Of a stretch of DNA of 64,000 nt, positions 15,630 to 64,000 are shown in pieces. The notes beneath the pieces are model-generated. The model ran no database searches and was not told the DNA's origin. It was given only the letters and a program-made list of their open reading frames with translations. This DNA comes from a virus. Both the position numbers and the translations under genes were made by a program. Each line of letters opens with the position of its first letter. Position 1 is the stretch's first letter. The stretch is from UHGV virus genome UHGV-1579991; one strand, written 5' to 3'.

Positions 15630-15865
15630 ATGTCATTTGTGTAAATGTCAACAAAAATAGCGCAGCAGTGTAATCTCACGACTAACTGCTGCGCTTGAAC
15701 ATTGTGCTATGAAAGAATGACCATCCCAAACACCCAAACAAGCACAAATGTTCCGACACAAGAAAACGGAAGAACCCGAAAGAAGCGAGGAGCACGCTTT
15801 GTTTGTGACTGGATTATGTTATCAATGTATGTACTTATAGGGTGTTTGTTCGTGGGTTCTTGTCA

Positions 15866-21776: not shown

Positions 21777-21842
21777 ATTGTCGAAATCTTGTTTGTGTTA
21801 TATGTACACAAAACTGCACCAGCAAAATTGCTGGTGCAGTCG

Positions 21843-24677: not shown

Positions 24678-24921
24678 TTTGTGTATGTTCTTGATTTGCT
24701 TGTTCTGCTAAGTTGTTTATGAATGCTTTGAGCAATTCAATGATTGTTGTTAGTAACTGAATTTGAAACAATACAATGCTAAACATGACAATTGCTACAA
24801 TGCAAATTGAAATGAAGAGCATATTGATGTCAAATTTGTTTGCTATCAATGTTTGCAGCCAAGTTATGACTGCAAACATTGAAATCAGTATGAATACTTT
24901 GTGCTGTGATAACGATTTCAT
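24655..24921 (-). CDS. hypothetical small membrane protein
   Basis: 88 aa; two hydrophobic segments (VFILISMFAVITWL, ICIVAIVMFSIVLF). Confidence 0.4.
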   Translation of the reverse strand: MKSLSQHKVFILISMFAVITWLQTLIANKFDINMLFISICIVAIVMFSIVLFQIQLLTTIIELLKAFINNLAEQANQEHTQNDSDTAN

Positions 24922-25637
24922 TTGAAATGTGCGGATGTCGGATTAGTGTCGGTCATTCTAATGTGCCAGTCATAAATGAACCATCTTGCGAGGTCATCAT
25001 TTTTGATGTTATGAGTTTTGACATACTGTTCAGGGCCTAATGCCTCGCCGGTTTCAGGATTGACTGCGAAGTGGGATTCATCTACATTAGTAGACTTGTT
25101 TTTGATGTTTGAGATTCGGAGCTTTGTATGCAGTTCAGTGCCATCAGATTGCAGTGTTTTGACATAGAATGCAGTTTTTGTCGTTGCTTCATTGTCAAGC
25201 CATACACCGAACTTAACTCCGTGCGATTTCCAGTATGCATTGTCAGCATCCCTGATTGCTTTGAAGTTCGGGTCATCAAGCCAAGGCTTGAAGACATATA
25301 CAGCATGTTGTTCCTTTCGAGTGATTTCGCCTTTGCCTTCACAAACTGTATGATACAGCCGCATTGCAGTTTCTTCATCGAAATAATAAGTCAGATTGCC
25401 TGGCTTATCGAATGTGCCAAACTGCTGACCATCGATTACGAGAATGAATGTGTAACGTGAATCCTTGAAGAACTCTACTCGTACAGGCTGTTTGTGCTGT
25501 CTGCTGTTAAGCAGTCTGTCAATTGTAATGACTGCCCAGTTGGTGCCTGTCTTTGTTTTGTTGCCGTGAAACAGTTCAGGATATGAAACTGTGTAAGGCA
25601 ATGCTTTGTACTTCCAATGTTCATTAAAACTTTTCAT
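24918..25637 (-). CDS. hypothetical protein
   Basis: 239 aa ORF; two copies of the upstream motif at 25700-25830. Confidence 0.5.
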   Translation of the reverse strand: MKSFNEHWKYKALPYTVSYPELFHGNKTKTGTNWAVITIDRLLNSRQHKQPVRVEFFKDSRYTFILVIDGQQFGTFDKPGNLTYYFDEETAMRLYHTVCEGKGEITRKEQHAVYVFKPWLDDPNFKAIRDADNAYWKSHGVKFGVWLDNEATTKTAFYVKTLQSDGTELHTKLRISNIKNKSTNVDESHFAVNPETGEALGPEQYVKTHNIKNDDLARWFIYDWHIRMTDTNPTSAHFK

Positions 25638-25900
25638 ATGTAGAGATTTTTGTAGTTTGTATCAATTGCATTCTATATCAATTGCATCTTGTATCAAATA
25701 CATTATATTGATATATGATAATTGTACTACAAAAATCCCAAATTTGCACACTTTGATAATCAAAAGTGCAAACAAAATTCAAAGTTATATTGTACATCAT
25801 AAAGTGCAAATTTGCACTTTATGATGCTGCAAAATGTTTGCATAAAAAAATAAGCAGCTTAGATTGCTAAGCTGCTGTCATTGTATGTATGCAGTCACTG

Positions 25901-26437
25901 TCATTTGTAGTGTTCAGTTATGTATGCAGAGCATAGCAAAACAACTGATACACAAATGACAATGTATGTTGGCGTAATCAGTGTCACATTGAATAACAAT
26001 GCAGTCAATGCGCATACTGTTACTGATATGAGTGTTGAAATGAATGCAGCATATGCACTAAACTTGCTTTTTAACAAACGTTCGATGATATATGTTGTCG
26101 CAACAGACAGTAAGACTACACATGCAAATAACAACAGCCAAGTTGAGTTTGACGTTGTCGGCTCTTCAATAAACTGCAATGTTGCTGATGGCACTTCAAT
26201 ATTGTTTGATGCTTGTAATGTGCCACTTGCAGCATCTGCGTACATCACAGTTAAGTAGTGTCGTTGAATTTCTGCTGCGTCTACTTTATAGATTCTATGC
26301 CATGCAACATCTGATATGATGTATGTTGCAGCCATAAATGCAGCAATGCATAGCATATAAGAGCCAAACTTTGCAATCGGTTTCATGCAAATATATTTTT
26401 GTTTGTATATGTACATAAAAGAGCAAGTTCTCCACAT
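25901..26437 (-). CDS. hypothetical multi-pass membrane protein
   Basis: 178 aa with several hydrophobic stretches. Confidence 0.45.
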   Translation of the reverse strand: MWRTCSFMYIYKQKYICMKPIAKFGSYMLCIAAFMAATYIISDVAWHRIYKVDAAEIQRHYLTVMYADAASGTLQASNNIEVPSATLQFIEEPTTSNSTWLLLFACVVLLSVATTYIIERLLKSKFSAYAAFISTLISVTVCALTALLFNVTLITPTYIVICVSVVLLCSAYITEHYK

Positions 26438-26764
26438 TGAGAACTTGCTCAGCTGACCTGTTACCAGGTGAAAGCGTGGTGCAGCACCTTGTGCTGCAAT
26501 GGCTATGCTGCCATCGCCATAACGGGCTGAGCATTGCCCAGCATCATTACACGACCAGCTGCATTAAGCGTACGCTTTGCTTTGTTGAAAAATTTGCCAG
26601 TTATCTGGTATCTGCACATCTATTCAAGCGACCTACTATGCAATCAAATGCCTGTCGAGCCCAATGTTTGAGCAGTTGTTTGTCAGATGCTCAGCTGACT
26701 GCAGTCTTTCTGAGTGTATCAAGTTCAGCGATTCTGCATCTTTGCTAAATGGCAATGGTTCAGG

Positions 26765-26800
26765 TGGACTCGCCGAGAATCGAACTCGGGTCTTACATAG
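26765..26800 (-). other. tRNA-like fragment (T-arm plus acceptor 3' strand only)
   Basis: Minus-strand read CCGAG-TTCGATT-CTCGG-CGAGTCC-A is a canonical T-arm plus acceptor 3' strand, but I could not find a matching 5' acceptor strand, D-arm or anticodon arm before the next tRNA. Confidence 0.3.
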
Positions 26801-26845
26801 CGCATCCTTGACTTGGTCCTGTAAACAGGGTTGTCAACATGCATT

Positions 26846-26916
26846 GCAATACGACAGGACTCGAACCTGCGACCTCGGATTGGACGTCCGCGCTCTTACC
26901 GCTGAGCTACGTATTC
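26846..26916 (-). tRNA. tRNA, anticodon uncertain (possibly Gly-UCC)
   Basis: Minus strand: acceptor GAATACG/CGTATTG (G1-G72 mismatch), D-arm GCTC-AGCGGTAA-GAGC, T-arm GCAGG-TTCGAGT-CCTGT; anticodon stem irregular (4 bp), loop CGTCCAA. Confidence 0.5.
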
Positions 26917-27009
26917 TTATCAATTGACTGCACTGCAATGCAATCAATCGTGCCAATGATATTTGACACGCATAATTGCAGTTATGCGTAACAATTCAAA
27001 TGTCATTTG

Positions 27010-27082
27010 AGCCAACTGCAGGAATCGAACCTGTAACCTGCTGAGTACAAATCAGCTGCTCTACCAATTGAGCTAAGTTGGC
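27010..27082 (-). tRNA. tRNA-Thr (anticodon UGU)
   Basis: Minus strand: acceptor GCCAACT/AGTTGGC, D-arm GCTC-AATTGGTA-GAGC, anticodon stem GCTGA/TCAGC with loop TTTGTAC, T-loop TTCGATT. Confidence 0.75.
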
Positions 27083-27164
27083 ATAAAGTCGTTGGGCCAT
27101 TGCAACCCAAACCTATCATCTTTGCCTAACCAAAGATGCAAGCGCTCTCTTACACCACGACTTG

Positions 27165-27235
27165 TAGCCGAACTTGGAGTCGAACCAAGCTTTCGAGAAT
27201 GAAAATCTCGCGTCCTAACCGATAGACGAAACGGC
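27165..27235 (-). tRNA. tRNA-Glu (anticodon UUC), non-canonical acceptor stem
   Basis: Minus strand: D-arm GTCT-ATCGGTTA-GGAC, anticodon stem CGAGA/TCTCG loop TTTTCAT, T-arm CTTGG-TTCGACT-CCAAG; acceptor GGCCGTT/TTCGGCT has two U-U mismatches at its base. Confidence 0.5.
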
Positions 27236-27419
27236 CAAGAGCAGTTCAAGTCTGCAGCATTGAACTGCGGAAACAATGCCTGTACGGGCAACCAATTGTG
27301 CAGATACAGCGACATTGCAAAATCACACCGAACCAAGTTTGTGGCTCTTCTGTCTCATAAAAACAAGTAATCATTACACTTGGCACCAATGATTTTGATG
27401 TAAAAATCGGTGTGTTACG

Positions 27420-27504
27420 CGGAGAGTAAGGGATTCGAACCCCTGGTACGTTGCCGTACAGTGGTTTTCAAGACCACCGCCATCGACCGCTCGGCCAACT
27501 CTCC
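27420..27504 (-). tRNA. tRNA-Ser (anticodon UGA), type II
   Basis: Minus strand: acceptor GGAGAGT/ACTCTCC, anticodon stem GTGGT/ACCAC loop CTTGAAA, 16-nt variable arm, T-arm AGGGG-TTCGAAT-CCCTT. Confidence 0.75.
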
Positions 27505-27697
27505 ATAAAACATTGCATAAGCATTCTTATCTCTTGATGAGGCCAAGTAGCTAATTTGGCAAGTTTGTTATATCTATCGTGACTGTTGCAGTTTGTTGTC
27601 ACTCAATACACAAAACTTTCGAACATTCATTGACAACACTGCAATATCGCTTTTTAAGCTCAGCCATCAATGTATTTATGCAATGTATAACAATTCG

Positions 27698-27779
27698 TAG
27701 CCAAACCGGGACTTGAACCCAGACTCCTAATGGAACAACATTTTGAGTGTTGCGTGTCTACCAATTCCACCATTTGGCC
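27698..27779 (-). tRNA. tRNA-Leu (anticodon CAA), type II
   Basis: Minus strand: acceptor GGCCAAA/TTTGGCT, anticodon stem CAACA/TGTTG loop CTCAAAA, 13-nt variable arm, T-arm CTGGG-TTCAAGT-CCCGG. Confidence 0.7.
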
Positions 27780-27876
27780 ATTTGCAAATGCAAGCTGTTT
27801 CACAACTGTTTGCATTTGCATTTGCATTGTTTAACACACTAAAATATGATTCATCTAATCAAAAACCAGAGAATTG

Positions 27877-27949
27877 TCGAGAATGTGCGATTTGAACGCC
27901 AATTATACGTCCCAAACGTATCGTGTTACCGGATTACACTACATTCTCG
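27877..27949 (-). tRNA. tRNA-Pro (anticodon UGG)
   Basis: Minus strand: acceptor CGAGAAT/ATTCTCG, anticodon stem ATACG/CGTAT loop TTTGGGA, T-loop TTCAAAT with a weak 3-bp T-stem. Confidence 0.6.
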
Positions 27950-27956
27950 TTAATTG

Positions 27957-28027
27957 TTGAACTGTCTGGACTCGAACCAGAAATATATCATCCAAAGTGA
28001 TATGTGTTACCATTACACCACAGCTCA
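27957..28027 (-). tRNA. tRNA-Gln (anticodon UUG)
   Basis: Minus strand: acceptor TGAGCTG/CAGTTCA (one G-U), D-arm GTG-TAATGGTAA-CAC, anticodon stem TATCA/TGATA loop CTTTGGA, T-arm TCTGG-TTCGAGT-CCAGA. Confidence 0.7.
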
Positions 28028-28132: not shown

Positions 28133-28495
28133 TTAATTGCACAATGTGACTCTGTCTTTAAGTTTATGCATGTGTAGCACGTTTGCAATATCTACTGGCA
28201 ACTTATATGACCCATCAGATATTGCAAATGCTGCAAGTTGCATAATCAAATCTGCATTGTCTGTAAGAACTTCTGCAAATTTACTGGCATCACAACATGC
28301 GTAATACTTGCGAATTGTTGCTGCTTGCTTTTGTATGATGACACGCACATATACAGTTTGAGCAATGACTGCGCGTCGTAAATCAACTTTGACAATACAC
28401 ATAGTGTCATCGTCGTCTTTCACGACATGTCGCCATACGCCGTCATTGCAAATGCCATGCTGTGCTATAAGTGTTTTAGTGATATCAGACATCAT
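28133..28495 (-). CDS. hypothetical protein
   Basis: 120 aa ORF immediately downstream (in transcript sense) of the tRNA array. Confidence 0.45.
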   Translation of the reverse strand: MMSDITKTLIAQHGICNDGVWRHVVKDDDDTMCIVKVDLRRAVIAQTVYVRVIIQKQAATIRKYYACCDASKFAEVLTDNADLIMQLAAFAISDGSYKLPVDIANVLHMHKLKDRVTLCN

Positions 28496-28540
28496 CTCTA
28501 CTCAAATATAATTTTTTGATAATAAAATTCCATACAAATA

Positions 28541-34899: not shown

Positions 34900-35154
34900 C
34901 TAAAATGTTAACTGTAATGACTTGATATTGACGCATTCAATTTTTAACATGACAAGCTTATCATGTGCAGCCATTGCGTCATATTTGATGTTTGCAATTT
35001 CGAGCTTTTGTGCAATTTTGTATGCAGTGGCGCCATCAGTAGATATGCAGATGCAATTGCCAATGACAATATTTGCTGCATCTGTTATATTAACTTTGCA
35101 TGCATTATCATTGTTATCAATGACTTCTATGCATTTGATTGAGTTAAAGTCCAT
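34900..35154 (-). CDS. hypothetical protein
   Basis: 84 aa ORF; its start lies directly downstream of the promoter cassette at 35161-35230. Confidence 0.4.
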   Translation of the reverse strand: MDFNSIKCIEVIDNNDNACKVNITDAANIVIGNCICISTDGATAYKIAQKLEIANIKYDAMAAHDKLVMLKIECVNIKSLQLTF

Positions 35155-35160
35155 ATTGCA

Positions 35161-35230
35161 GAGGTTTAGTATATTTGACAGTATATTATTTATAGATATA
35201 TAATACTACATACTTGCAGATTTTGCACTT
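35161..35230 (-). promoter_or_regulatory. putative late-type promoter cassette (TATAAATA box on the minus strand)
   Basis: Minus-strand read GTGCAAAATCTGCAAGTATGTAGTATTATATATCTATAAATAATATAC...; shares the core attatttatagatatataatactac...attttgcac with 51127-51200; sits 10-70 nt upstream of the 34900..35154 start. Confidence 0.45.
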
Positions 35231-39452: not shown

Positions 39453-42400
39453 TCAATTACATGCTGAATGTCCGCAGTTGGTGCATCGAACACAGCCGTC
39501 AAACTTGACCATGTCACCACCGCATTCAGGACACTTTGCATACATCTTTGAGCCATCTTGAATGTGTAGTTTCAATGCGCGACCAATTGCTTTGCAGAAT
39601 GTGCCAACAGATGCAAAGCTTTTTGCAGTTTGGTCGACAATTTCACCAAGGTCGATGCCATTGCGAAGCATCGTTGAGTACAGTCGAGTAATTGTTTGCT
39701 GCTCATCTGAACCAAGACGTTCTGAGATATTGTCATAGTGTTGCAAGAATGACAAATTATCACCAAGCTTGTAGTGCTTCTTATCAGTCTTTGTGATTGT
39801 CGTTTGTTCAATGCCTTGCAACTTGTCAAATTCGTCTTTGTCAAGTTCAAATGCAAAGATTTCATAGGGTCGACCATCATCACAACCTACAAGAATACAC
39901 CACTTACGCTTATACACTGATACACAATACACTGCAGCAGGCAATACAGGTTTTCGTTTTGAGCGATGACCAGACTGCAAGACATGCGACTTATCCTTAG
40001 ACTGCTTATCATCTTTTACGAGAACACCTGCACGTGAGCCATCTCGATAAATTGTGCAACCCTTGCAGCCAGATTTCCATGCAGTCAGATAAATTTCACG
40101 AACAAGCTCTTTTGTTGCAGAGTTTGGAATATTGACTGTTACAGAAATTGATGAGTCAATGTACTTTTGCAACGCGCCTTGCAGTTTAACCTTGCCAATC
40201 CAGTCAACATCTTCAGTAGTTGCCTTATAGTATGGTGATTGAACAAGCAATTCATCAATGACTGCTTGCGAAGCATTTGACAACCAAGCTTTGATACGAG
40301 ACATTTCTGCTTCTGACCATTCAATGCCAGTATCTTTGACAAGGGTGAATTTGTCATCACCAAGCTGCACTCGTTTGCAAATCCACTGCATCAATGGGTA
40401 GTGAACTACAGCGTATTCAATGAACTTGTCACCAGTAGTCTCATCAATGAAGTTGATGTCTGCTTCATTATCAACTGCAGTAGGCTTTCGACGACGTTTG
40501 TGCAGTGGCATAAAAACAGGTTCAATGCCAGAAGTTGTCTGAGTCATCAAAGCTGTGGTGCCAGTTGGCGCAATTGTTGTTGTGTTGATGTTTCGACGAC
40601 CAAATTGTTGATAAGTTGTGATGTGCTCATCATCAATCAGTTCAGATAACATACGCTGAATGAACTTTGACTGCACATCTGTGTCATAGTCGAATATTGC
40701 AAATGAGCCACGAATCTCTGCCAAGTCAATTGACGCTTCATAAGTCGCCTTTACAAGCCATTGTTGCATAGTGACTGCGAAGTCAATTGACTCTTGTGAA
40801 CCATAGCGCAAGCCAAGCATTGCCATTGCATCGCCAAGTGCAAGAAAGCCCATGCCATATCGACGAGTATTTGTCAATTTGTCATAGACTTTATGCCACA
40901 AGTCAAGCTCAGTTTTCTTAATGTCAAATGATTCTTTGTCTGATTCAACCTTTGCAATGATTCGTTGAACTGCTTCAATTTCAAGCTGCACAAGGTCATC
41001 CATGATGACTGCACAGTCATATGTATCTTTGTAGAATGCTTCAAAGTCAAATGATGCATCAGCAGTCCAAGGATTAAGCACATATGCAGTCAAATTGCGA
41101 TGTGATAAAATGCAGCTTGCATATGCTGCAAGAGGCTGTTCACCGCACTGCCTGTTGTTTACAAATACTTGCATATGTCTGTCATTTGTATCATTGACAG
41201 CGTCAAATGACCCTACAAAAAAGTTGTGATAATCATCTACAGTGCCATTATACACATCTTCTACACCATCAAGTTCAACAGTGTGTACCCTATGATTGTA
41301 GTAATCTGCAAACTGCTTAAACTTTCTGTATGACGCATGAATAGCAGCGTCAACATTGTTAGATTTGCATTCATTTGCAAATTCTTCATAATTTGGTCGT
41401 TTGCCAAGTTTTTGCTTTGCTGCAGTATATACAAGCACTTGTTCTTTAGACCATTTTGCTTGCTGAGCTGCGTGGCCGCATTCGGCAGAACAATATGCAA
41501 CTTCTCTATAAAACCAGTGCGCCCAAAATTCAGAGCCGCAATGTTCGCAAATACGTTTAACATACACTTGTTTGTCAACAAATTTAGTGTCATAGCCCAT
41601 ATTGCGAACTTTAATTGCTGTTGCTATGCATCTGCTATCAATGCCAACTAAATCAGGATATTTAACATTAGCGCGCGTTGCACAATGACTTAAAAATGCA
41701 TCAATAGAGCCAAATGTTTCTACTAATTTATTGTACCTGTAGCCAGACCATGCAACAGTATTATTGCCTGGCGCATAGCGCATATAGTATTCTAATTCTT
41801 TGCGACTAAGGCCTCTTCCAACTTTTGCAGTGCATTGCGTAACATAGTCTACAATTGATTGCACAGTTGTATCAATATCATATCTGCCATTACGTTCACC
41901 AGAAGTAGATGCACTCATTTTAGCAGAATACTGTGCAAAACGTTCTGCATTTGCTTTAATTTTGTATATTGGATTGTTAGTGCCTCTACGTTCAAGTGCA
42001 TGTAATGCATCATGCTCTTTTTTGCTTAGTACTTGTAAGTTATTTGGGTCATTGTTTAATGAATTGCCATCGATATGATGCACTACTGTGTGTGTAGCAT
42101 CAAACTGTTCAGCATGACAGTATTCTGCTATTAAACGATGCTCAAACTTATATACACCATTATTCAACACTGCATAATATGGTGCAGATTTGCTATTTGT
42201 TTGATAGCTAAGCACTTCATCAAATGAACATTGTTGTCTTGCAATAATTGCTAAGCTATCACCATGCTGTAATTGTCGTGCTTCTTTGTATGTGCCATCT
42301 GTTAACTTAAACTTGTGATTACCTGTGCAACGAATAACATCACCAGAATCAAGTGTAACTTTGTATATTTGCACATTTGAGCCTGTTTTGCGTGGATGCC

Positions 42401-43439
42401 GCATTTTGCGTACAACTACATTATTGTTGTCATCATAGCAATACACATTAACATCATCGCCAATATCTGCAAGTTCACGTATTGTCATTGTTTGTCTGCC
42501 ATCAGCAAGCATAACTTTAGTGCTGCCAACAATGCATGGATTTGTTGAGCGCTCTTCATACATTTTACCGTATGCTTTCGAGTTCGACTCTTCCATAATG
42601 CGGTCCCAAAAGAACACGCCGGGTTCTGCAGATGCCCATACATTGTCAACAATTTTGTCAAATAATGCTTTTGCATCTGATGTCTTATGCAGCTCTTGGC
42701 CATCAGAGCCACGCCAAATATGTTCAAACTGCTGTTCTGCAAGCACTGCACGCATAAATGCATCAGTAAGCTTGATGGAAATGTTTGCACCTGTGATTTT
42801 TGTCAAGTCTTTTTTTGCGTCAATGAACTTATCTGCATCAGGATGCTCAATTGACAATGACAACATCAATGCGCCACGCCTGCCATTTTGTGCAACTTCT
42901 TTTGTCGATGTTGAAAAGCGTTCCATAAATGACACGACACCAGACGTCGTAATAGCACTGTTATGTACTTCTACGCCTTCTGGGCGAATATGCGACAAAT
43001 CATGGCCAACACCACCACGACGTTTCATCAACTGAACTTGCTCTTCATCTGTTTTGAAGATGCCGCCATATGAATCTGCATCATTGCCTATTACATAGCA
43101 ATTTGACATTGATGTGTAACCGCCAAGACCGATACCAGCCATTGGAGAACCACCAAGTACAAATCGCTTAAATGGCTCAAGCAAATATGCAAGTCGCTCT
43201 TTTGACAATACACGTTTGCCTGTCTGTTCTTCAAATTGTGATTCTATACGGTCAAATTCATTGACCCAGCGCTCATGCATATCAGACAATGAGTGTTCAT
43301 ACAAATTGTCTTTGTCATGATGCAAGTATTTTGACATGCATATGTCAGCAGCCATTGAGTCGCCCGTAAATTCATGCGTCAGTGTAGTGTGCACTTCAGC
43401 ATATTCAGGCGACCCAATTTGAATGGGACGTTTTGTCAT
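39453..43439 (-). CDS. nrdJ: ribonucleotide reductase, class II (NrdJ)-like, intein-containing precursor
   Basis: Track ORF 39453..43499; likely start at ATG 43439 (MTKRPIQIG). Exteins reconstitute the RNR active-site motif NP-CGEQPL...AYASC; C-terminal Cys-rich zinc-ribbon-like tail. Class assignment is tentative. Confidence 0.7.
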   Translation of the reverse strand: MTKRPIQIGSPEYAEVHTTLTHEFTGDSMAADICMSKYLHHDKDNLYEHSLSDMHERWVNEFDRIESQFEEQTGKRVLSKERLAYLLEPFKRFVLGGSPMAGIGLGGYTSMSNCYVIGNDADSYGGIFKTDEEQVQLMKRRGGVGHDLSHIRPEGVEVHNSAITTSGVVSFMERFSTSTKEVAQNGRRGALMLSLSIEHPDADKFIDAKKDLTKITGANISIKLTDAFMRAVLAEQQFEHIWRGSDGQELHKTSDAKALFDKIVDNVWASAEPGVFFWDRIMEESNSKAYGKMYEERSTNPCIVGSTKVMLADGRQTMTIRELADIGDDVNVYCYDDNNNVVVRKMRHPRKTGSNVQIYKVTLDSGDVIRCTGNHKFKLTDGTYKEARQLQHGDSLAIIARQQCSFDEVLSYQTNSKSAPYYAVLNNGVYKFEHRLIAEYCHAEQFDATHTVVHHIDGNSLNNDPNNLQVLSKKEHDALHALERRGTNNPIYKIKANAERFAQYSAKMSASTSGERNGRYDIDTTVQSIVDYVTQCTAKVGRGLSRKELEYYMRYAPGNNTVAWSGYRYNKLVETFGSIDAFLSHCATRANVKYPDLVGIDSRCIATAIKVRNMGYDTKFVDKQVYVKRICEHCGSEFWAHWFYREVAYCSAECGHAAQQAKWSKEQVLVYTAAKQKLGKRPNYEEFANECKSNNVDAAIHASYRKFKQFADYYNHRVHTVELDGVEDVYNGTVDDYHNFFVGSFDAVNDTNDRHMQVFVNNRQCGEQPLAAYASCILSHRNLTAYVLNPWTADASFDFEAFYKDTYDCAVIMDDLVQLEIEAVQRIIAKVESDKESFDIKKTELDLWHKVYDKLTNTRRYGMGFLALGDAMAMLGLRYGSQESIDFAVTMQQWLVKATYEASIDLAEIRGSFAIFDYDTDVQSKFIQRMLSELIDDEHITTYQQFGRRNINTTTIAPTGTTALMTQTTSGIEPVFMPLHKRRRKPTAVDNEADINFIDETTGDKFIEYAVVHYPLMQWICKRVQLGDDKFTLVKDTGIEWSEAEMSRIKAWLSNASQAVIDELLVQSPYYKATTEDVDWIGKVKLQGALQKYIDSSISVTVNIPNSATKELVREIYLTAWKSGCKGCTIYRDGSRAGVLVKDDKQSKDKSHVLQSGHRSKRKPVLPAAVYCVSVYKRKWCILVGCDDGRPYEIFAFELDKDEFDKLQGIEQTTITKTDKKHYKLGDNLSFLQHYDNISERLGSDEQQTITRLYSTMLRNGIDLGEIVDQTAKSFASVGTFCKAIGRALKLHIQDGSKMYAKCPECGGDMVKFDGCVRCTNCGHSACN
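41148..42536 (-). mobile_element. intein (Hint domain plus HNH homing-endonuclease domain) inside the RNR gene
   Basis: In-frame 463-aa insertion from Cys at 42536 (CIVGSTKVMLADG) to ...VFVNNRQ at 41148, followed by the +1 Cys of CGEQPL. Contains HNH motif HHIDGNSLNNDPNNLQVLSKKEHDALH and intein block-F-like VYNGTVDDYHNFFVG. Confidence 0.75.
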
Positions 43440-43504
43440 TGTAACAGTGCATTTAAGTGTTTTAACAGTTTTATGTATAAATTGTACAACAATGGGCAAA
43501 ATTT

Positions 43505-43886: not shown

Positions 43887-44348
43887 TTATTGTGCTTTTG
43901 CTTGTGCAGTGTAATAAGTGATTGCATCAATGTAAGGTAGTTCTTTAGACATTAGCCAATCAATGCCAAATACTGTATCTTGGCGAAATCTTCGTTGTGC
44001 AATCATTTGAACTTCGATTGGCATATCTACGTCCTTGCCAAATCTGATTGTATTTGCAAGTTCTGTGATTGCATATCTGAGAATTTTATCGGTACTCATT
44101 GTTAAGGTGCTTTCCGGCAATTGCCAATAACGTTCTTGGAATGCTCGATTTGCTGAGTAAGTCCAAAGTTCAAGTCTTGCATTTCTGCAATCATATGAAA
44201 CAATCAGACTTAATCCTTTTGTCCAGCAATGTGCTATCTTAATGATTGGCTTGTCATCATTGATAGATGACATTGCTTGCAGTTTTTCGAAATCTTTAAC
44301 ATATCTGTTATCATTCGAAAGCTGTTCCATTATTTCACCGTAAGTCAT
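43887..44348 (-). CDS. hypothetical protein (start at MTYGEIMEQ)
   Basis: Track ORF 43887..44426 begins inside the upstream motif region; ATG at 44348 is preceded by the leader AACCTCTACTACA, identical to the leader of 50253..51125. Confidence 0.45.
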   Translation of the reverse strand: MTYGEIMEQLSNDNRYVKDFEKLQAMSSINDDKPIIKIAHCWTKGLSLIVSYDCRNARLELWTYSANRAFQERYWQLPESTLTMSTDKILRYAITELANTIRFGKDVDMPIEVQMIAQRRFRQDTVFGIDWLMSKELPYIDAITYYTAQAKAQ

Positions 44349-44540
44349 TGTAGTAGAGGTTAAAATATATTGATATATAATAATTATACTACAAAGTTGC
44401 CAGATTTGCACCAGAATGTATAACAAGTTTGCATAAAAAAGTTTTTACATAAAATGGCAAACAAAAAACAAGCAGACTGCAATTGCAGCCTGCTTGCGCC
44501 AAAACAGAAAAAGATGATAACTTAACCCAAAAACCTAACT

Positions 44541-49722: not shown

Positions 49723-50178
49723 TTAAAATTTGCCATCTGCTACTTGAAAGCATCGATAGCCAAGCTCTCGCCATTTAGCGACCATGGAATCGCGGTCTTC
49801 AAGCACAAATGCAATTTGTTGCAGTTCGTCTTCAGACAATGCTTCTACAAGCAATTCAGGTTTGACAAGCGTATCATGACGTTTATCACCATCTTTTCGC
49901 ATAAGAATTTGCGGATTAACGATTCTGTAATCTGTATGCTGTGCAAGCCAAACTTCTGTCATTTGTCTGCAGCTTTCACGACGGCCTGTGCAGAATATGA
50001 TTCTATAGCCAACTTGCTGCAAATCGCAAAGCAAGTCAAGCACAGTCATAATAGGCTTGTCTTCATAACAGTGTGCATAAAATGCATCCCAATCTTTGTT
50101 TTGCTGTTGAAGATATTTTAGACGGTCGCCAACTTTTGAAATTGTTCCGTCAATGTCGCATATGATGATATTTGCCAT
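49723..50178 (-). CDS. HAD-superfamily phosphatase
   Basis: 151 aa; HAD motif I IICDIDGTIS at the N-terminus, motif II-like FCTGRRE, motif III/IV-like RKDGDKRHD. Confidence 0.55.
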   Translation of the reverse strand: MANIIICDIDGTISKVGDRLKYLQQQNKDWDAFYAHCYEDKPIMTVLDLLCDLQQVGYRIIFCTGRRESCRQMTEVWLAQHTDYRIVNPQILMRKDGDKRHDTLVKPELLVEALSEDELQQIAFVLEDRDSMVAKWRELGYRCFQVADGKF

Positions 50179-50196
50179 GATGTGTATGCTTATGAA

Positions 50197-50222
50197 AGGA
50201 AGAGCTCAATTGAGCTCTTCCT
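50197..50222. terminator. 26-bp perfect palindrome; putative terminator
   Basis: aggaagagctcaattgagctcttcct; between the start of 49723..50178 and the stop of 50253..51125; shares the AGCTCAATTGAGCT core with the palindrome at 54522-54549. Confidence 0.5.
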
Positions 50223-50252
50223 GATAGTCAACTTGATAAACCTCTACGAAAA

Positions 50253-51125
50253 TCAAGCTTGACTACTTTTGTTGATTACGAGATACTTGTATCGTTCTTT
50301 GATTGTGATGTTCTTTGATTTTGCCGCCTCGATTTCTTTGCGTTCCTTGGAGGAATAGTTGAACTTAATGTAGTCGGAGAACAATTCGGGCTTATCTGCT
50401 ACTTCATTGTTCTTGACTTCTTTTACAAGAGTTTGCTGAAACTCATTGATTGTAGTGAAACCAAGGAATGACTGGAACTTGTTAAGCGGAAACAGCTTAT
50501 CTGTGTTGTCCTCGAATGTCGGGAATTCGTCGGAATACGTAATTTCGATTTGGTCTACGAAATATCTAAGTTTTTCCCAAGGTTCCTTGCCAATGAGGAG
50601 AATGTTCTGATGGTCAAGTTTTTCCTCGAACATTTCCAGGAGACATTCGTATGATTTTACGAGACGAACTCCAGGATATGTAATTGATGCAATTGAACGA
50701 GGTTTGTGAGTCGTCTTGACTTCTTTATTGTATGTTTCCTCGTCGATGCAATAGATGTATCGCTTGACCTTGTCGTATTCTTTCGGAAGATAGTTGTTGT
50801 CAAGGAATTGCTTGTCAACTACAATGAAACTGAAAGGATAGAGTTCATTGAATCGTTGACGAAGCTGTTCTGTTGCAAGGAAGAAATGCGAGCCATCTTT
50901 TGCTGCAAATTCCATATTTGAATTGCATCCTGCATATGCAATGTATCTGTTTCGCTTCCATTTGAGGAATCGACTTACCAGGTTCTTTTCGAAGATGTCC
51001 TTGTATTTGAAGTAGGTGTCCCAGTACTCCTTAACAATTCCATCTTGCATTTTTCTTGACAATTTTGAATTGTCTACCGGCCTATCAGTAAAAACTGATG
51101 GTTTGTTTGCGTTGTATAATCCCAT
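50253..51125 (-). CDS. hypothetical protein (compositionally distinct)
   Basis: 290 aa ORF; codon usage looks richer in G/C-ending codons than its neighbours (judged by eye); preceded by the promoter cassette and the leader AACCTCTACTACA-ATG. Confidence 0.5.
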   Translation of the reverse strand: MGLYNANKPSVFTDRPVDNSKLSRKMQDGIVKEYWDTYFKYKDIFEKNLVSRFLKWKRNRYIAYAGCNSNMEFAAKDGSHFFLATEQLRQRFNELYPFSFIVVDKQFLDNNYLPKEYDKVKRYIYCIDEETYNKEVKTTHKPRSIASITYPGVRLVKSYECLLEMFEEKLDHQNILLIGKEPWEKLRYFVDQIEITYSDEFPTFEDNTDKLFPLNKFQSFLGFTTINEFQQTLVKEVKNNEVADKPELFSDYIKFNYSSKERKEIEAAKSKNITIKERYKYLVINKSSQA

Positions 51126-51126
51126 T

Positions 51127-51200
51127 GTAGTAGAGGTTTGTTAATTTATTATTTATAGATATATAATACTACGACAATGCAAATTTTGCACTGTCGTAGC
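51127..51200 (-). promoter_or_regulatory. putative late-type promoter cassette (TATAAATA box on the minus strand), duplicate of 35161-35230
   Basis: Minus-strand read GTGCAAAATTTGCATTGTCGTAGTATTATATATCTATAAATAATAAATTAACAAACCTCTACTACA-ATG; shares the core attatttatagatatataatactac with 35183-35208. Confidence 0.5.
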
Positions 51201-51220
51201 ATAAAAGTTTACACATTTTT

Positions 51221-53400: not shown

Positions 53401-54081
53401 TCAAAAAAACTTAAGTTTTGATAGCATTTCAGTGTCTTGTTCTGTGTTGATGCCAAGCTCTTGCATGACATCAAGCAATGCAGACCATAATTGCTCATAT
53501 GATTTGCCGCTGTTCATAACAACAGCGTCAACAAACAACTCGTCGATATATTGTTCACTTGAATGATTGATGCTTTGCTTGACATCGTCATTGATAATTT
53601 TAATGAGTTTGAAGCCTCTTGAACGCAATGCGGTCGCTTCATTTGGATATCGACAATCGCCAACACAAATAAGAGCTTCATTATGACAATTGTCAAGTCG
53701 ATACAGCAAACTGTTTACAAAGAAGTCTTCACCATACAGTTTCTTGAGCGCATCTGAAACATCAAGATGCACATTGCGAATCGATGAACCTGCAAACTCT
53801 ACAAAGTGTTTCTGTTTGAATGCATTGTTATGCAAGTCTTGCAAATTGTAGCCCAGTGTACTTGCAATAAATGCTTTCAGTGGCTTTGCAAAGCACTCAT
53901 ATGCAAGATTGCAGCCACATGACCAGTATGGATTCGCTTCAATTTGCTGTAAAGTTGATGTGTAAATGCCATCAACTACAGTGAACTTGCATTTAGTCAT
54001 GACTCGAATCATCGCCCAAGCCAAATCTTTGCCTACGCCTGCATGACCAACAAGCGCAATTTTTGTTATGTCATCATTCAT
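53401..54081 (-). CDS. deoxynucleoside monophosphate kinase (T4 gp1-like)
   Basis: 226 aa; P-loop-like LVGHAGVGKD and VGDCRYPNE motif resembling the RFxNE element of phage dNMP kinases. Confidence 0.5.
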   Translation of the reverse strand: MNDDITKIALVGHAGVGKDLAWAMIRVMTKCKFTVVDGIYTSTLQQIEANPYWSCGCNLAYECFAKPLKAFIASTLGYNLQDLHNNAFKQKHFVEFAGSSIRNVHLDVSDALKKLYGEDFFVNSLLYRLDNCHNEALICVGDCRYPNEATALRSRGFKLIKIINDDVKQSINHSSEQYIDELFVDAVVMNSGKSYEQLWSALLDVMQELGINTEQDTEMLSKLKFF

Positions 54082-58468: not shown

Positions 58469-59530
58469 TTATTTTGTATTGCTACGCGTCATTGTTAAAT
58501 GACCGCAATCATACACATCAACTTCTGTTTTGCCAAGCATACATGTATGACAATTTATTTTGAAATCTGCTGCAGTGTAATCAGGATAGTTTAGCGGAGA
58601 TTCTTTTGACAAATCAATTTCAATTGTGTCAGTAGTTTTAAGTTGTTCAGTGCCTGCAATGATATCTGCAATAAGATTGATAACTTCTTCTTGTGAATCC
58701 CAATCAAACACAGTTATGCAACGATAGCCTGCATCAAGTGCAAGTTTTGTTTTGTTGTAATGGTATTGAGCACCAATAACATTGTTGTCTTTTGCTCGAC
58801 CAGTTAAATATGCAAAACTAACAGTGCAGTTGTGCGTAACTGTTGGACAAATTTCTATAAGTAACTTTGCAGGCTCATACTGCAAATCATATGTTTGATT
58901 ATTGATGTTAAACTCGTACTGTGTATCAATTGCCAACTGTCGTAATAACGCATCATGCCACATCATATTACATTTAGAAATTGTTTTGGATGACAATCTG
59001 CATTGCGGCAATTGACATGGCCAATCTACGCCGTACATTTGTTGTGTTGTTTGACGCATTTTGTTAACATCACCAAAATGATTGCCATATCGATGCTCTT
59101 TGGTTTTAAGCGACTGCTCAATATTGACATTGCCTACACAACCATAACGTTCAAGTTTTGTTGCAGCAGTTTTGCTAACATCACCATGCCCATTGCCAAA
59201 TTTGGCGACTTTAGTTGCAAGTATTTTATGACTTGGGCCAAATGCATTGCCATACAATTCTTGTTTAGTCGCAAGCATTTTGTCGATATTACAACCAGCG
59301 CCATAAGTGTTATGCATAGTTTGCATACGTTGTCGAATAAATTTTGGCACAGATAAAGGACTTTCTACACCATATTTGCGTAAGCAACTGATTTTGCATG
59401 CGTACTTTTGCTTGATGACAGAATGTGCATTTCGACGTCCTATGTAAGTGTTTTCTGATGTAGCAGCAAGCTCTGCATCTCTAAGAACTTCAAGTGCAGC
59501 AATTCGTGCTTCAATTTCTTCAGATGTCAT
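58469..59530 (-). CDS. homing-endonuclease-like paralog
   Basis: 353 aa; coiled-coil N-terminus (EIEARIAALEVLRD), YG-x-x-x-G-D repeats, LIEICPTVTHN...GYRCITVFDWD nuclease-like domain, VYDCGH tail. Confidence 0.55.
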   Translation of the reverse strand: MTSEEIEARIAALEVLRDAELAATSENTYIGRRNAHSVIKQKYACKISCLRKYGVESPLSVPKFIRQRMQTMHNTYGAGCNIDKMLATKQELYGNAFGPSHKILATKVAKFGNGHGDVSKTAATKLERYGCVGNVNIEQSLKTKEHRYGNHFGDVNKMRQTTQQMYGVDWPCQLPQCRLSSKTISKCNMMWHDALLRQLAIDTQYEFNINNQTYDLQYEPAKLLIEICPTVTHNCTVSFAYLTGRAKDNNVIGAQYHYNKTKLALDAGYRCITVFDWDSQEEVINLIADIIAGTEQLKTTDTIEIDLSKESPLNYPDYTAADFKINCHTCMLGKTEVDVYDCGHLTMTRSNTK

Positions 59531-59876: not shown

Positions 59877-61592
59877 TCAAATCCAGCCGTAGTCGCTGTG
59901 GATAGCGAAGGTGAGGTAAGCCAACTCGGGATACATACCCGTCTCCGCGAGAGCGTAATCCGACTCAATCAGCAACTTAGGCGCTGCTGTACCTTCGGCT
60001 GTTAATTCCACACTTGATGCAAGGTCATATGGCATGAATACGCATCCCTGGTTGACATTCTCTACGTCAACGCCGTCAGCAGTTTTGTTCGTACGAAGAA
60101 CGAGAACAGTGTTATCGTTCAGCGGCTGCTTAGGATTGCAATAGATTTTAATGCCAGCAAGGTCACCTGCATAATACAGGTTCTTGTTGTCCTGTACCAG
60201 CGTATTGTCAAGAGCTGCAACAAAGTTCTTCTGAGCCTTAATTGCAACCAAGGCAATCGTATTGACCACGGCAGCATCACCGGCACCGAAACGCGACAGG
60301 TTGCCAATGATTGCCGAAGCAGCCAGGATACGAGTTGCGATACGAGCCTGACGGGTAATCTGGTTCTCAGCCGAGCTGTTCGATTCAGCGTTCGGAACCA
60401 TACCGAATTCAGCCGTACGGTCTACACCCATCTTGTCGACAAATGCAGGAGCCTGGAATTCTGAGAATGCCTTGGCGGTTGAACCAGCGTAGCCAATGTA
60501 CAAGTTCAGGTTGTAGCCCTGAGCAGCCAACAGCTGAGCATGTGTCGTAACACCAAGTGCACGCATGCGCTTCAGACCATTGTCGTTAATTGACTGCGTG
60601 ATTTCATTCTGCATTGCATTCTTGATGATTGCAACTGCATCCAAACCGCGAGCACGGAGGTCCTTAACCTGTCGACGAGTCAGAGCACCCCAAGTCTGGT
60701 ACGTCTTAACTTCGATAGCCTTTGAGAAGGTGCGGAGCTCCAGCATGTTCGGGTTGCCAGCCTCAGCCTCAGAACGAGACATTGGGTTGCCGTCAATGTC
60801 ATCCATTGCAGCGAAGCCGTGGATGTGTTCGTCACCAGCCGAAACCAGGTCGAACATAACCTCAGTCATGCCAGTCAGCATGTCAGTTACAGCACCTGCA
60901 GCGTCAACCGAGTAGATTTTCGATGCAGCCATTGCAACATCAGCCAACGACTTGTCAGGAGCAACTGTCATTGCGCCACCTGCGCCTACAGTGTACACGC
61001 CCTCATTGCGAACTACGAGGTAGCCTGCAACACGCGATACCTGTACAAACGTTACCTTGGCAGCAAGCTCACCGGCAGCTGAACCGCCGATGTACAGAAC
61101 TTGACCCTTCTTGAGGCCATGAACCATTGTCTGCGAAGCAACATTGTACAACTCCTTCCACTTGATGAGGAAGTAACGAGGACCCTTGGCTGCATTCAAC
61201 TTGCCACCGCCATATACGTAGTCTACATAGTCCAGCTGAACCAGCGGGCTGTAAACAGGAATGGTCGGGAGCAGGTCGAACAGAATCGTGTTGGCTGCGA
61301 TGTTCATGTTCAGAGCCAGAACATTGGCAGCTACATCTATTGAACCACGCTTACGCGACGGGTCATGGAACTGTGCTTGCGTACCTGGGTCAGCAGGGAA
61401 AGCGACCGGACCTACGCCATTGAGATTCTGCGAATACGTCGACTCAAACGACTCGTTCATATACTGAACGTTCTGAGCGATTGATGCGAGCAGATACTTC
61501 TTAGCGGGCGAGAGCTTGGAGTCAAACGACTCATCAAGAACAGGACCCCACTTTTTCAGCAATGCATCAATCTGTGTACGTTTTGCGTTCAT
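59877..61592 (-). CDS. putative major capsid protein
   Basis: 571 aa ORF in a locally GC-richer stretch with distinct codon usage (highly expressed gene signature, judged by eye), followed by a strong intrinsic terminator; no catalytic motifs. Functional call is inference, not a recognised motif. Confidence 0.4.
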   Translation of the reverse strand: MNAKRTQIDALLKKWGPVLDESFDSKLSPAKKYLLASIAQNVQYMNESFESTYSQNLNGVGPVAFPADPGTQAQFHDPSRKRGSIDVAANVLALNMNIAANTILFDLLPTIPVYSPLVQLDYVDYVYGGGKLNAAKGPRYFLIKWKELYNVASQTMVHGLKKGQVLYIGGSAAGELAAKVTFVQVSRVAGYLVVRNEGVYTVGAGGAMTVAPDKSLADVAMAASKIYSVDAAGAVTDMLTGMTEVMFDLVSAGDEHIHGFAAMDDIDGNPMSRSEAEAGNPNMLELRTFSKAIEVKTYQTWGALTRRQVKDLRARGLDAVAIIKNAMQNEITQSINDNGLKRMRALGVTTHAQLLAAQGYNLNLYIGYAGSTAKAFSEFQAPAFVDKMGVDRTAEFGMVPNAESNSSAENQITRQARIATRILAASAIIGNLSRFGAGDAAVVNTIALVAIKAQKNFVAALDNTLVQDNKNLYYAGDLAGIKIYCNPKQPLNDNTVLVLRTNKTADGVDVENVNQGCVFMPYDLASSVELTAEGTAAPKLLIESDYALAETGMYPELAYLTFAIHSDYGWI

Positions 61593-61680: not shown

Positions 61681-62970
61681 TCATTTTTCAATCTTTTTGA
61701 GCAATGCATGACCGCAATCATAGACTTCGACGAAGCCTGAAGCAATCAATGAGTCAACATCTATAGAAGACGTTCGTATAATATGTTCGTGTGTCTTGAT
61801 ATTGTATAGATGACACTGAACCCATGTTTTGACGACTTCATAATTTGGATACAATCGAGGGTCTTCTTTTGACAAATCAAGTTCTATGACATCATCAGTT
61901 TTGAGCTGCTCAGTTTTGTTTATGACATCTCTAATGTGCAGCAACATATCATATCTACAATCCCAGTCAAATATTGTTATACATCGATAGCCATTGCGTG
62001 CTGCAACATCTGTTTTGAATTTGTGAGCATACGCAGGTTTGGCGTCATTATCAACAGAATGCCCAGTTATGTAACCAAAGCCCTTTGTTGCATTGTGTGT
62101 AACAGTTGGATTGATTTCAATTACAACAGCATCTTTTCGCAAATCATATAACAAGTTCTCAATAGGATGCTCAGTAACAAAATCAAGATTGCAAGAATGT
62201 TTCAAATCCCATTGCCACGACATATTGATGTTTGATGTCAACCTTGCAGATGCTTGCGGCAATTGCAATGCATGTTCTACACCATAGCGTTCACGTAATG
62301 TTGCATGAGCCTTTTGCATATTTTGCATTGCTGGACCCCAATGCTTAAATTTTGTTGCATTTATCTTCGCAATTTTGTCTGGCAGCTTATTTGTACTATC
62401 TACACCATATTTAATAAGACAGCTGATGCGAATATTGTATTGTCGTTTTATTCGAGAATGTGATGTAGCACATCTACTAAATCGTTCAAATGGTGTTGAT
62501 GCAATCAATGCATCTCGTTCTGACTCAAGAGCTTTGACATGTTCAAGCACTTCTGCTGGCACATTATCATAGTCAATCACATATTGCTGACGTGGTTGCG
62601 TTACATGAGTTTTGCCATATGTCTTAAGCTTATTGATTTGCATGCTATACTTTCTGCGTATATGTGGATGTCTTGATGCATCAGATTGCGCAATTTCATG
62701 CTCTCGTTGCTCTTCAAGTTTAGCTATTTGCTCAACAATAGCTGGTTCAATGTCTGGTTTGTCTGATATGACTATACTTTTAAGCTCATCAAGACGTTTG
62801 TTTAGATATTTGACACGTCTTGTGTATGTTATCTTTGCAACTTGATGGTTTGTATGATGCTTACCTACTTGCTGTTCTGGTTGATTCAGCGTGTCATCAA
62901 GGCGTTGCTTAGCGAGCTCAAATTCATTATCAAGCCATGCTTTGTGTGTGTCAAATTCGTCTTGTGTCAT
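61681..62970 (-). CDS. homing-endonuclease-like paralog
   Basis: 429 aa; coiled-coil region, YG repeats, VVIEINPTVTHN...GYRCITIFDWD nuclease-like domain, FVEVYDCGHA tail. Confidence 0.55.
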   Translation of the reverse strand: MTQDEFDTHKAWLDNEFELAKQRLDDTLNQPEQQVGKHHTNHQVAKITYTRRVKYLNKRLDELKSIVISDKPDIEPAIVEQIAKLEEQREHEIAQSDASRHPHIRRKYSMQINKLKTYGKTHVTQPRQQYVIDYDNVPAEVLEHVKALESERDALIASTPFERFSRCATSHSRIKRQYNIRISCLIKYGVDSTNKLPDKIAKINATKFKHWGPAMQNMQKAHATLRERYGVEHALQLPQASARLTSNINMSWQWDLKHSCNLDFVTEHPIENLLYDLRKDAVVIEINPTVTHNATKGFGYITGHSVDNDAKPAYAHKFKTDVAARNGYRCITIFDWDCRYDMLLHIRDVINKTEQLKTDDVIELDLSKEDPRLYPNYEVVKTWVQCHLYNIKTHEHIIRTSSIDVDSLIASGFVEVYDCGHALLKKIEK

Positions 62971-63704: not shown

Positions 63705-64000
63705 TTATGCGTCATCGTACAGTGAATGACTTATCGTCATCTTCTGTAGTAGTTGGGTCATCAATTACATCGTGGCCAATACCTGACATGGGCTCTGGCT
63801 CAGGTTCCGGTTCTGGTTCCGGTTCTGGTTCCGGTTCTGGTTCCGGTTCTGGTTCCGGTTCTGGTTCCGGTTCTGGCTTTGGCTCCGGCTTAGGCTCTGG
63901 CTTAGGCTCTGGCTCAGGTTCCGGCTCAGGTTCCGGTTCTGGTTCCGGTTCTGGTTCCGGTTCTGGTTCCGGTTCTGGTTCCGGTTCTGGTTCCGGTTCT
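63705..64000 (-). CDS. hypothetical protein with (Glu-Pro)n / (Lys-Pro)n dipeptide-repeat region, partial (N-terminus beyond window)
   Basis: Minus-strand frame is open from the window edge to stop TGA at 63707..63705; ggttccggttct repeats translate as EPEPEP...EPKPEPKP, ending ...[29 protein letters not shown]. Confidence 0.5.

Follow-up and report, generated by a model that had tools for sequence, protein, structure and literature searches.

A shared leader at the end of a repeated promoter-like cassette, and a candidate complementary RNA loop, in a phage probably infecting gut Bacteroidota

The shared leader and the genes behind it

The 64,000-nt stretch of the viral genome UHGV-1579991 analyzed here (the window) carries nearly all of its genes on the minus strand, and two of these, p153 (43887-44348, minus strand, 153 aa) and p290 (50253-51125, minus strand, 290 aa), begin behind one and the same short leader. 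The 16-mer AACCTCTACTACAATG, which includes the ATG, occurs exactly at 44346-44361 and at 51123-51138 on the minus strand, and read on the reverse strand the two starts are ...TTTTAACCTCTACTACAATGACT and ...ACAAACCTCTACTACAATGGGA, respectively; beyond the 16-mer the identity of the two leaders ends on either side. In the p153 leader the core AACCTCTAC lies at 44353-44361 and the ATG at 44346-44348, and the p290 leader, AAACCTCTACTACAATG (51123-51139, minus strand), presents the 10-nt core AAACCTCTAC at 51130-51139 ahead of the ATG at 51123-51125. A related leader that the initial annotation had also pointed out, AAACCTCTGCAATATG (35152-35167, minus strand), indeed precedes p84 (34900-35154, minus strand, 84 aa) and proves to be the junction of an insertion or deletion (see below). 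A weak variant, AAATCTCTACATATG (25635-25649, minus strand), stands at the start of p239 (gene 24918-25637); because it is not conserved in a related lineage (L027), it is a doubtful member of the group. Neither p153, p290 nor p84 has a match in Pfam or PHROGs, and the p153 and p290 proteins are unrelated to each other (BLASTP best E 0.043 over 17 aa), which bears out the earlier observation of an identical leader on two unrelated genes.

The leaders of this genome are strongly biased in composition and frequently end in (C)TACA-ATG, and both properties would favor a chance identity of two A/C-rich leaders. The probability left to such a coincidence is practically negligible, as a position-specific model of the 56 gene starts of the window expects only 4e-4 identical 13-mer pairs, none of the shuffles (0/100) gave three matches at three or fewer mismatches, and further exact copies are found in relatives. 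Searching the 64-kb window for the leader, as had been suggested, found the core word confined to gene starts behind promoter-like cassettes: AACCTCT has three copies on the coding strand and the degenerate form AAYCTCTRC has four, every one of them directly preceding the start codon of the first gene behind such a cassette. A third exact copy of the leader is present in a near-identical genome (3300045988_152288), where it stands before an unrelated 78-aa membrane-type protein and behind a cassette with a longer spacer.

The window is most probably part of a human-gut T4-like myovirus of ~175 kb that infects Bacteroidota. It encodes a Gp23-type major capsid protein (59877-61592), a T4-type large terminase (2282-4273), topoisomerase II subunits, an NAD-dependent DNA ligase and seven tRNA genes. 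In protein comparisons the capsid is 27-37% identical to those of jumbo and T4-like phages that infect Chryseobacterium, Tenacibaculum, Flavobacterium and Prevotella (Lak) and to that of Sphingomonas phage PAU, and the E value of its Gp23 match (5e-11) makes the phage only distantly T4-like. No phage record matched at the DNA level (megablast), and two near-identical genomes of ~175 kb, 3300045988_152288 and 3300045988_149023 (152288 and 149023 in the following), are present in IMG/VR; the more distant relatives of p290 come from human-gut metagenomes. The host phylum is thus deduced from the relatives of the capsid together with the gut-metagenome relatives.

The p290 protein gave no match to PDB sequence profiles and no relatives in GTDB genomes. 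An AlphaFold model built from a 9-sequence alignment (pLDDT 70, pTM 0.67) has a dihydrofolate reductase (DHFR)-like fold and matches PDB dihydrofolate reductases (Foldseek E ~1e-8, target TM 0.67-0.74, 11-13% identity). Its neighbors belong to nucleotide metabolism and include a PNKP-phosphatase HAD domain (49723-50178), a dNMP-kinase-like gene (53401-54081) and a ribonucleotide reductase (39453-43499). The p290 protein may be a divergent Frd-like enzyme.

A repeated promoter-like cassette

The leaders had been suspected to belong to a duplicated promoter cassette, and this is confirmed by the alignment of the regions upstream of them. Around 17 copies of a promoter-like cassette lie on the coding strand upstream of minus-strand genes, with the consensus (G)TGCAA, a 17-nt spacer and TACAAT, TATTAT or TATAAT, often arranged around a TGCAAAnTTTGCA palindrome. 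The three genes with the leader follow a subfamily that contains GTAGTAT(T/A)AT, and in the alignment of its members the conserved promoter core is separated by a spacer that varies in length from AAACCTCT(A/G)C, after which 3-4 nt and the ATG follow, so that leader core and start codon form the end of the cassette. In the p153 cassette the promoter-like core spans 44383-44411 (minus strand), with GTGCAA at 44406-44411, a 17-nt spacer and TATAAT at 44383-44388; in that of p290 it spans 51163-51202 (minus strand), with GTGCAA at 51186-51191, the same spacer length and TATTAT at 51163-51168; and in that of p84 it spans 35200-35228 (minus strand) and combines GTGCAA, a 17-nt spacer and TATTAT. 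The leader core is located 22-24 nt downstream of the -10-like hexamer and should therefore be transcribed as part of the 5' untranslated region (UTR). Transcription starting downstream of the shared motif, which had been named among the circumstances that would refute the first reading, is therefore not what the promoter geometry predicts.

Several cassettes are associated with stem-loops. A strong 13-bp terminator-like hairpin with a T-run (44468-44497, minus strand) lies directly upstream of the p153 cassette, and the cassette of p290 lies within a hairpin of 17 bp (51166-51202) that extends over the -35 to -10 region (z=-5.0) and of which the L027 counterpart has different arms that are still complementary, i.e., that covary. 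More generally, cassettes are often perfect or near-perfect palindromes centered on TGCAAAnTTTGCA, as at 51166-51202 and 25785-25816 (both minus strand) and at 376-402 of L027; the arms differ from copy to copy, and in a comparison of the window with L027 they covary (CTACGACAG.../ACAGCGA...), and the palindromes could represent either an RNA/DNA hairpin or the operator of a dimeric regulator. The p153 and p290 cassettes also share the element ATGT(G/A)AAAACTTTT(TT)ATGC just 5' of the -35-like hexamer (44412-44445 and 51196-51218, minus strand), which may be UP-like.

Other promoter types and a structural role of the -10 region were considered and discarded. The -7 box of the Bacteroides sigma-ABfr consensus, TAnnTTTG, is not associated with the cassettes and is not enriched upstream of genes; isolated TAnnTTTG boxes occur at 28503-28510 and 15652-15659 (minus strand), 15 and 30 nt upstream of 28133-28495 and 15363-15629, respectively. 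The T4 late promoter TATAAATA inside the cassette has two copies in 64 kb, which is the level expected by chance, and is not a general late promoter. Sequestration of the leader in read-through transcripts by pairing of the -10 region (GUAGUA) with UACUAC is predicted for p153 no better than for shuffled sequences (z=+0.6); in p290 the promoter hairpin pre-empts it, and its apparent covariation is lost in L002. A second recurrent upstream motif, (T)GTACATATAA, is found before several genes (2244-2259, 15487-15496 and 21798-21807, minus/plus), including the divergent pair 948-2222/2282-4273; with nine matches at one mismatch or fewer against 4.5 expected, it may constitute another promoter class.

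In its architecture the cassette resembles PeSL (promoter-early stem-loop) cassettes of T4-type phages, in which a strong sigma-70-like promoter and a stem-loop are followed at the 3' extremity by a ribosome-binding site and the ATG; recombination at their ~100 bp of conserved sequence shuffles genes (Arbiol et al., 2010, PMC2839356; Comeau et al., 2014, PMC4122927). Early promoter activity in infected cells and the formation of mini-circles are further hallmarks of PeSL. Like PeSL, the phage cassette is an intergenic, multi-copy element of ~100 bp with a sigma-70-like promoter, a stem-loop located between or over the -35 and -10 motifs or just upstream of them, and a ribosome-binding region with a downstream ATG at its 3' extremity, and it precedes genes without known homologues and shows a gene insertion or deletion between close relatives at its edge. 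Differences are apparent as well: whereas PeSL stems are of the GGGG/CCCC type, those of the phage cassette are built around the TGCAAAnTTTGCA palindrome, and, in keeping with the probable Bacteroidota host, the 3' extremity bears the leader AAACCTCTAC in place of a Shine-Dalgarno (SD) sequence. The points of likeness seen in the sequence are a repeated -35/-10 motif with a spacing inside the 16-18 nt range, an associated stem-loop, a start region at the 3' end and a gene insertion or deletion (one case only), and the promoter and terminator are putative.

That single case concerns p84. In genome 149023 the p84-type cassette drives an extra 76-aa Cys-rich (CxxC...CPCC) open reading frame (ORF) with the leader AAACCTCTAC-ATCT-ATG, and p84 follows this ORF with a core-less leader. 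In the window the ORF is missing and the junction reads AAACCTCT joined directly to GCAATATG, which accounts for the G of the variant leader before p84. This ORF is the sole difference in gene content seen in ~9 kb at ~96% identity (L179 3834-4075 versus window 35157-35159), so that the 3' edge of the cassette is the exact point at which a gene was gained or lost. Together with the exact copy in 152288, this indicates that the leader travels with its cassette. Unrelated genes share the leader because the cassette has been copied and recombined before different genes, as occurs with PeSL in T4-type phages. The identical 16-mer would accordingly be the end at which ribosomes load in one subfamily of the repeated promoter/5'-UTR cassette, which is laid out as GTGCAA, a 17-nt spacer, TATTAT/TATAAT/TACAAT, a variable spacer, AAACCTCTAC, 3-4 nt and ATG.

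Translation initiation without a Shine-Dalgarno sequence

The C/U-rich leader without a purine run had been regarded as unusual, and in the context of this genome it is not. Among the 56 gene starts, the SD words GGAG, GAGG and AGGA occur between positions -20 and -4 in 1/56, 0/56 and 0/56 cases, respectively, and A accounts for 42% and G for 12% of positions -20 to -1. There is a strong excess of A at -14, -13 and -12 (37/56 at -13) and at -3/-2, and G is nearly missing at -14, -2 and -1. The absence of an SD is expected, because the relatives of the capsid belong to phages of Bacteroidota and the other relatives come from human-gut metagenomes. In Flavobacterium johnsoniae A is over-represented at -14 to -11, A at -3, -6, -12 and -13 is a positive determinant, and there is little structure around the start (Baez et al., 2019, PMC6847099). 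In Bacteroidia ribosomes the anti-SD is kept sequestered (Jha et al., 2021, PMC7797042). As for the shared leader, A stands at -13, -12, -6 and -3, G does not occur at all, and folding predicts it to be single-stranded. Both the profile of the window and the leader itself thus have the features of a Bacteroidia-type SD-less start region and lack those of SD-led initiation, and the leader is a typical case of the local SD-less norm. The start regions described for Bacteroidia (PMC6847099; PMC7797042) share with it the absence of an SD, the A-rich -11 to -14 segment, A at -3/-6, the depletion of G and the low structure near the start codon, but they consist of statistical preferences, whereas the phage leader is a specific 10-nt word that is conserved and repeated.

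This specificity raises the question of whether the word is a dedicated signal that recruits the ribosome in place of an SD, e.g., by pairing with rRNA or by acting on a phage-modified ribosome, and it does occupy positions -14 to -5, where an SD usually sits, and is conserved. We consider this very improbable. Only 3-4 of the 56 genes and 3-4 of the ~17 cassettes bear the motif, orthologues in related phages keep the promoter without it, and ACCUCU has the same sense as the anti-SD, which makes pairing with the anti-SD impossible; moreover, the latter is sequestered in Bacteroidia (PMC7797042). For the same reason of polarity, mimicry of the anti-SD by the leader and its pairing with the 3' end of the 16S rRNA were rejected. 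Of the shared initiation signal that had been hinted at, what stands is a leader that fits the SD-less optimum of Bacteroidia (A at -13, -12, -6 and -3, no G, unstructured) with a core under additional constraint; what is very improbable is the strong sense of a dedicated substitute for the SD.

Age and constraint of the leader core

Orthologues of p290 at 43-52% identity (L023, L028, L030 and L032) keep the promoter motif and have quite different leaders, and L037 and L038 are likewise core-less. The core is found only in the clade of the window and in the 77%-identical lineage L027, where it has the form AAACCTCTACAACAATG, and it is therefore young and lineage-specific and answers to no deep requirement. 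Within this narrow range it has nevertheless remained unaltered: four orthologous comparisons show 0/36 changes in the core against 24/153 in the adjacent spacer and at -4 to -1 (Fisher p=0.009), and changes start immediately 3' of the core, where TACA, AACA, AATA and ATCT are found. These counts argue that, besides being copied with the cassette, the 10-nt core is held constant by selection.

A complementary hairpin in the 3' UTR of p290

A leader search allowing three mismatches also gave a match at 50239 of the plus strand; read on the coding strand, this site is GUAGAGGUU(U), which has a single copy in 64 kb, located 5 nt past the p290 stop codon. It belongs to a hairpin, here called SL1 (50225-50265, minus strand), with a 13-bp stem (5' arm 50252-50265, 3' arm 50225-50237) and the 14-nt loop UUUCGUAGAGGUUU (50238-50251, minus strand); the p290 stop codon TGA (50253-50255) lies inside the 5' arm. 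Bases 50238-50247 of the loop (GUAGAGGUUU), i.e., its 3' two-thirds, are the exact complement of the leader core, and the loop, when reverse-complemented to AAACCUCUACGAAA, agrees with the leader over exactly the 10 conserved nucleotides. SL1 is directly followed by a terminator-like hairpin, SL2, with the sequence GGAAGAGCUCAAUUGAGCUCUUCC and then UUUCAU (50192-50221, minus strand; hairpin 50198-50221). At gathering score, Rfam finds in the window only the seven tRNAs, with no match at SL1 or the leaders.

Both hairpins fold well together (z=-6.8), and the L027 homologue has the same two-hairpin architecture (z=-3.7) with a terminator hairpin of wholly different sequence. Between the window and L027 the SL1 loop is identical at 14/14 positions, and of the six inner stem pairs four have changed in a compensatory manner, two are unchanged and none is broken. 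A search of IMG/VR for the exact 14-mer loop was swamped by random matches and served solely as a control; among 120 random occurrences of the 14-mer, only the cognate genome had at least five flanking pairs. In six distant p290 orthologues (43-52% identity) there is no core and no complementarity between leader and 3' UTR. Core and loop are both present in two lineages and both absent in six; neither side varies, which leaves no covariation of loop with target, and both probably go back to a single gain.

The loop is predicted to anneal to the leaders far better than to other start regions, with duplex energies of -14.5 kcal/mol at 35154 and 51125 and -13.8 kcal/mol at 44348 against a median of -5.3 kcal/mol for the 56 start regions, and the two former sites remain the two best when the scan slides along the entire coding strand. 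Complementarity amounts to 10/10 nucleotides for p290, 9-10 for p153 and 10 (one G.U) for p84. Variants that preserve pairing through wobbles were considered as evidence for the interaction and set aside, given that the G of p84 is an indel junction and the p239 variant is not conserved. The loop starts with UUCG, which is of the YUNR type, a motif that presents the bases following it in antisense recognition loops (PMC6562991). In Bacteroides, the small RNA (sRNA) GibS anneals to an SD-less start region and thereby represses it (PMC7366714).

An inverted copy of a leader could also mean that p290 lies in a mobile or invertible segment bounded by terminal inverted repeats. This was rejected, as the other leader copies have no inverted partner, the orientation does not differ among the five genomes or contigs, and orthologues of distant relationship occupy the same position without repeats.

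Alternatively, the core could be an operator for a phage protein, either a RegA-like RNA-binding repressor or a DNA-binding regulator that recognizes AAACCTCTAC in either orientation, the SL1 copy being one more binding site. T4-type phages use translational operators that overlap start codons, that of RegA being AU-rich, and such a protein would be suited by a short, conserved motif that is asymmetric and keeps a constant distance to the ATG across several genes. On RNA, however, the reverse copy is the complement, so that an RNA-binding protein would see a different sequence there, and a DNA site leaves unexplained why a covarying stem presents the motif in a loop. Neither a RegA-like protein nor another candidate regulator was found among the ~40 window proteins scanned against Pfam, with ~110 kb of the genome lying outside the window. 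We regard an operator as improbable.

SL1 can be compared with the C-rich loops of RNAIII and RsaE of S. aureus, with enterobacterial sRNAs derived from 3' UTRs, and with GibS (PMC7366714). As in these regulators, a stable hairpin is followed by a terminator, a conserved single-stranded loop has its complement in several mRNAs immediately 5' of the AUG, and the loop opens with a YUNR-type motif ahead of the bases that would pair. The polarity is reversed in SL1, where a G-rich loop faces a C/U-rich SD-less leader, and SL1 is phage-encoded and has its loop in the 3' UTR of an mRNA that itself bears a target, which makes pairing in cis possible; unlike the sRNAs, it is known here only as part of the p290 mRNA sequence. 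A second parallel is offered by plasmid R1. In the fbi/tac fold-back of its hok mRNA, a 3'-terminal element pairs with the 5' leader of the same molecule and controls its translatability. The hok fold-back operates in a toxin-antitoxin context with 3' processing and Sok RNA, and nothing alike is evident at p290.

A model for control of the leader and its alternatives

In the proposed model, the leader core would pair with the complementary 14-nt SL1 loop, and this pairing would be the most likely reason for the constancy of the core. Occupation of positions -14 to -5 by the loop would occlude the binding site of the 30S subunit. The p290 3' UTR could act in cis, on the leader of p290 itself, or else in trans, as the whole mRNA or as a processed 3' fragment, and would then co-regulate every gene behind this cassette subfamily. 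The effect could be repression by occlusion of -14 to -5, or it could be a 5'-3' closed loop favoring re-initiation, which is conceivable because the p290 stop codon lies in the SL1 stem.

The principal competitor of this model is pure duplication or gene conversion of the cassette, with a leader that was copied recently, a core that is merely an adequate SD-less start region, and a complementary loop that serves an unrelated purpose, e.g., stability of the mRNA 3' end or attenuation. All copies stand behind the same cassette subfamily, the core is missing from orthologues at 43-52% identity, a gene insertion or deletion maps exactly to the cassette edge, and chance complementarities of 10 nt are frequent, all of which such duplication accounts for. 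It does not explain why changes are significantly fewer in the core than in the UTR next to it, why the spacer between promoter and core varies in length and sequence among copies, nor why the 14-nt loop has remained invariant while stem and terminator turned over, the invariant part being precisely the complement of the invariant part of the leader. For these reasons we hold duplication as the sole explanation to be unlikely, albeit the least unlikely of the alternatives.

Several observations weigh against loop-leader control. Complementarity of 10 nt between a start region and some site on the strand is common (219 found versus 87 expected), and the case therefore rests on context and not on the match alone: the placement in a loop, the location in the same transcription unit, sequence invariance next to a stem that covaries, and the match to that very part of the leader which is conserved. 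SL1 is present in two independent lineages only, and its covariation thus rests on one comparison. The copies of the core elsewhere could have been carried along passively by duplication of the cassette from the p290 locus; the G of p84, as a junction, provides no wobble-preserving mutation, and the weak variant of p239 is not conserved in L027. As to the cassette, 13 of the ~17 copies work without the core, which is therefore not needed for translation as such, and the cassette is unlike the sigma-ABfr consensus TAnnTTTG of Bacteroides.

Taking both sides together, the part of the explanation that comprises the cassette and an SD-less host is highly probable, and the composite explanation, in which a cassette-end leader, an SD-less host and control by loop-leader RNA pairing are combined, is rather probable. 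A functional interaction between loop and leader, taken by itself, is a real possibility to which we give somewhat less weight than to its absence, and it is only tentatively that we propose a Bacteroidota phage using the 3' UTR hairpin of an early gene, the DHFR-like p290, as an antisense loop on a 10-nt SD-less leader word spread by a mobile promoter cassette.

Other features of the window

Other parts of the window contain further elements of interest. The ribonucleotide reductase large subunit (39453-43499, minus strand, 1348 aa) is split by an intein splicing domain that bears an HNH endonuclease. Four dispersed paralogues on the minus strand (948-2222, 14438-15370, 58469-59530 and 61681-62970) have weak DUF7487 matches and internal ~54-nt periodic repeats; two of the four flank the major capsid gene, and they may be selfish or mobile genes. 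ARAGORN calls a permuted tmRNA ('tmRNA*', 26412-26854, minus strand) adjoining the cluster of seven tRNAs (26846-28027), which is probably a false positive because it has no Rfam tmRNA match at gathering score. A tandem GGTTCC/GGTTCCGGTTCT array of ~33 hexamer copies (63803-64000) runs past the end of the window and on the coding strand would encode a short-period repeat segment of a protein.

Concluding remarks

By itself, the identical leader is nothing out of the ordinary, being that of a regulatory cassette repeated in a phage with a host that makes no use of SD sequences, and the finding is mostly explained by known principles, SD-less initiation in Bacteroidia and a PeSL-like cassette, to which a candidate loop-leader interaction is added. 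The PeSL concept has so far been that of SD-bearing T4-type phages of Proteobacteria, and the window extends it to a distantly T4-like phage of, most probably, gut Bacteroidota. Expression constructs for Bacteroides may also profit from the leader as a start region that is both short and strong. Control of translation without an SD is poorly understood in the Bacteroidota lineage; the GibS study (2020, PMC7366714) called its case the first of this kind of control in Bacteroidia, and no phage example was found in a non-systematic search of the literature. A leader word and its exact complement in a covarying 3' UTR hairpin thus form a compact candidate for RNA control of SD-independent initiation. 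If the proposed interaction is true, any gene that lands behind the cassette would be enrolled automatically in a post-transcriptional regulon, and the cassette would provide a portable promoter, leader and RNA operator in one.

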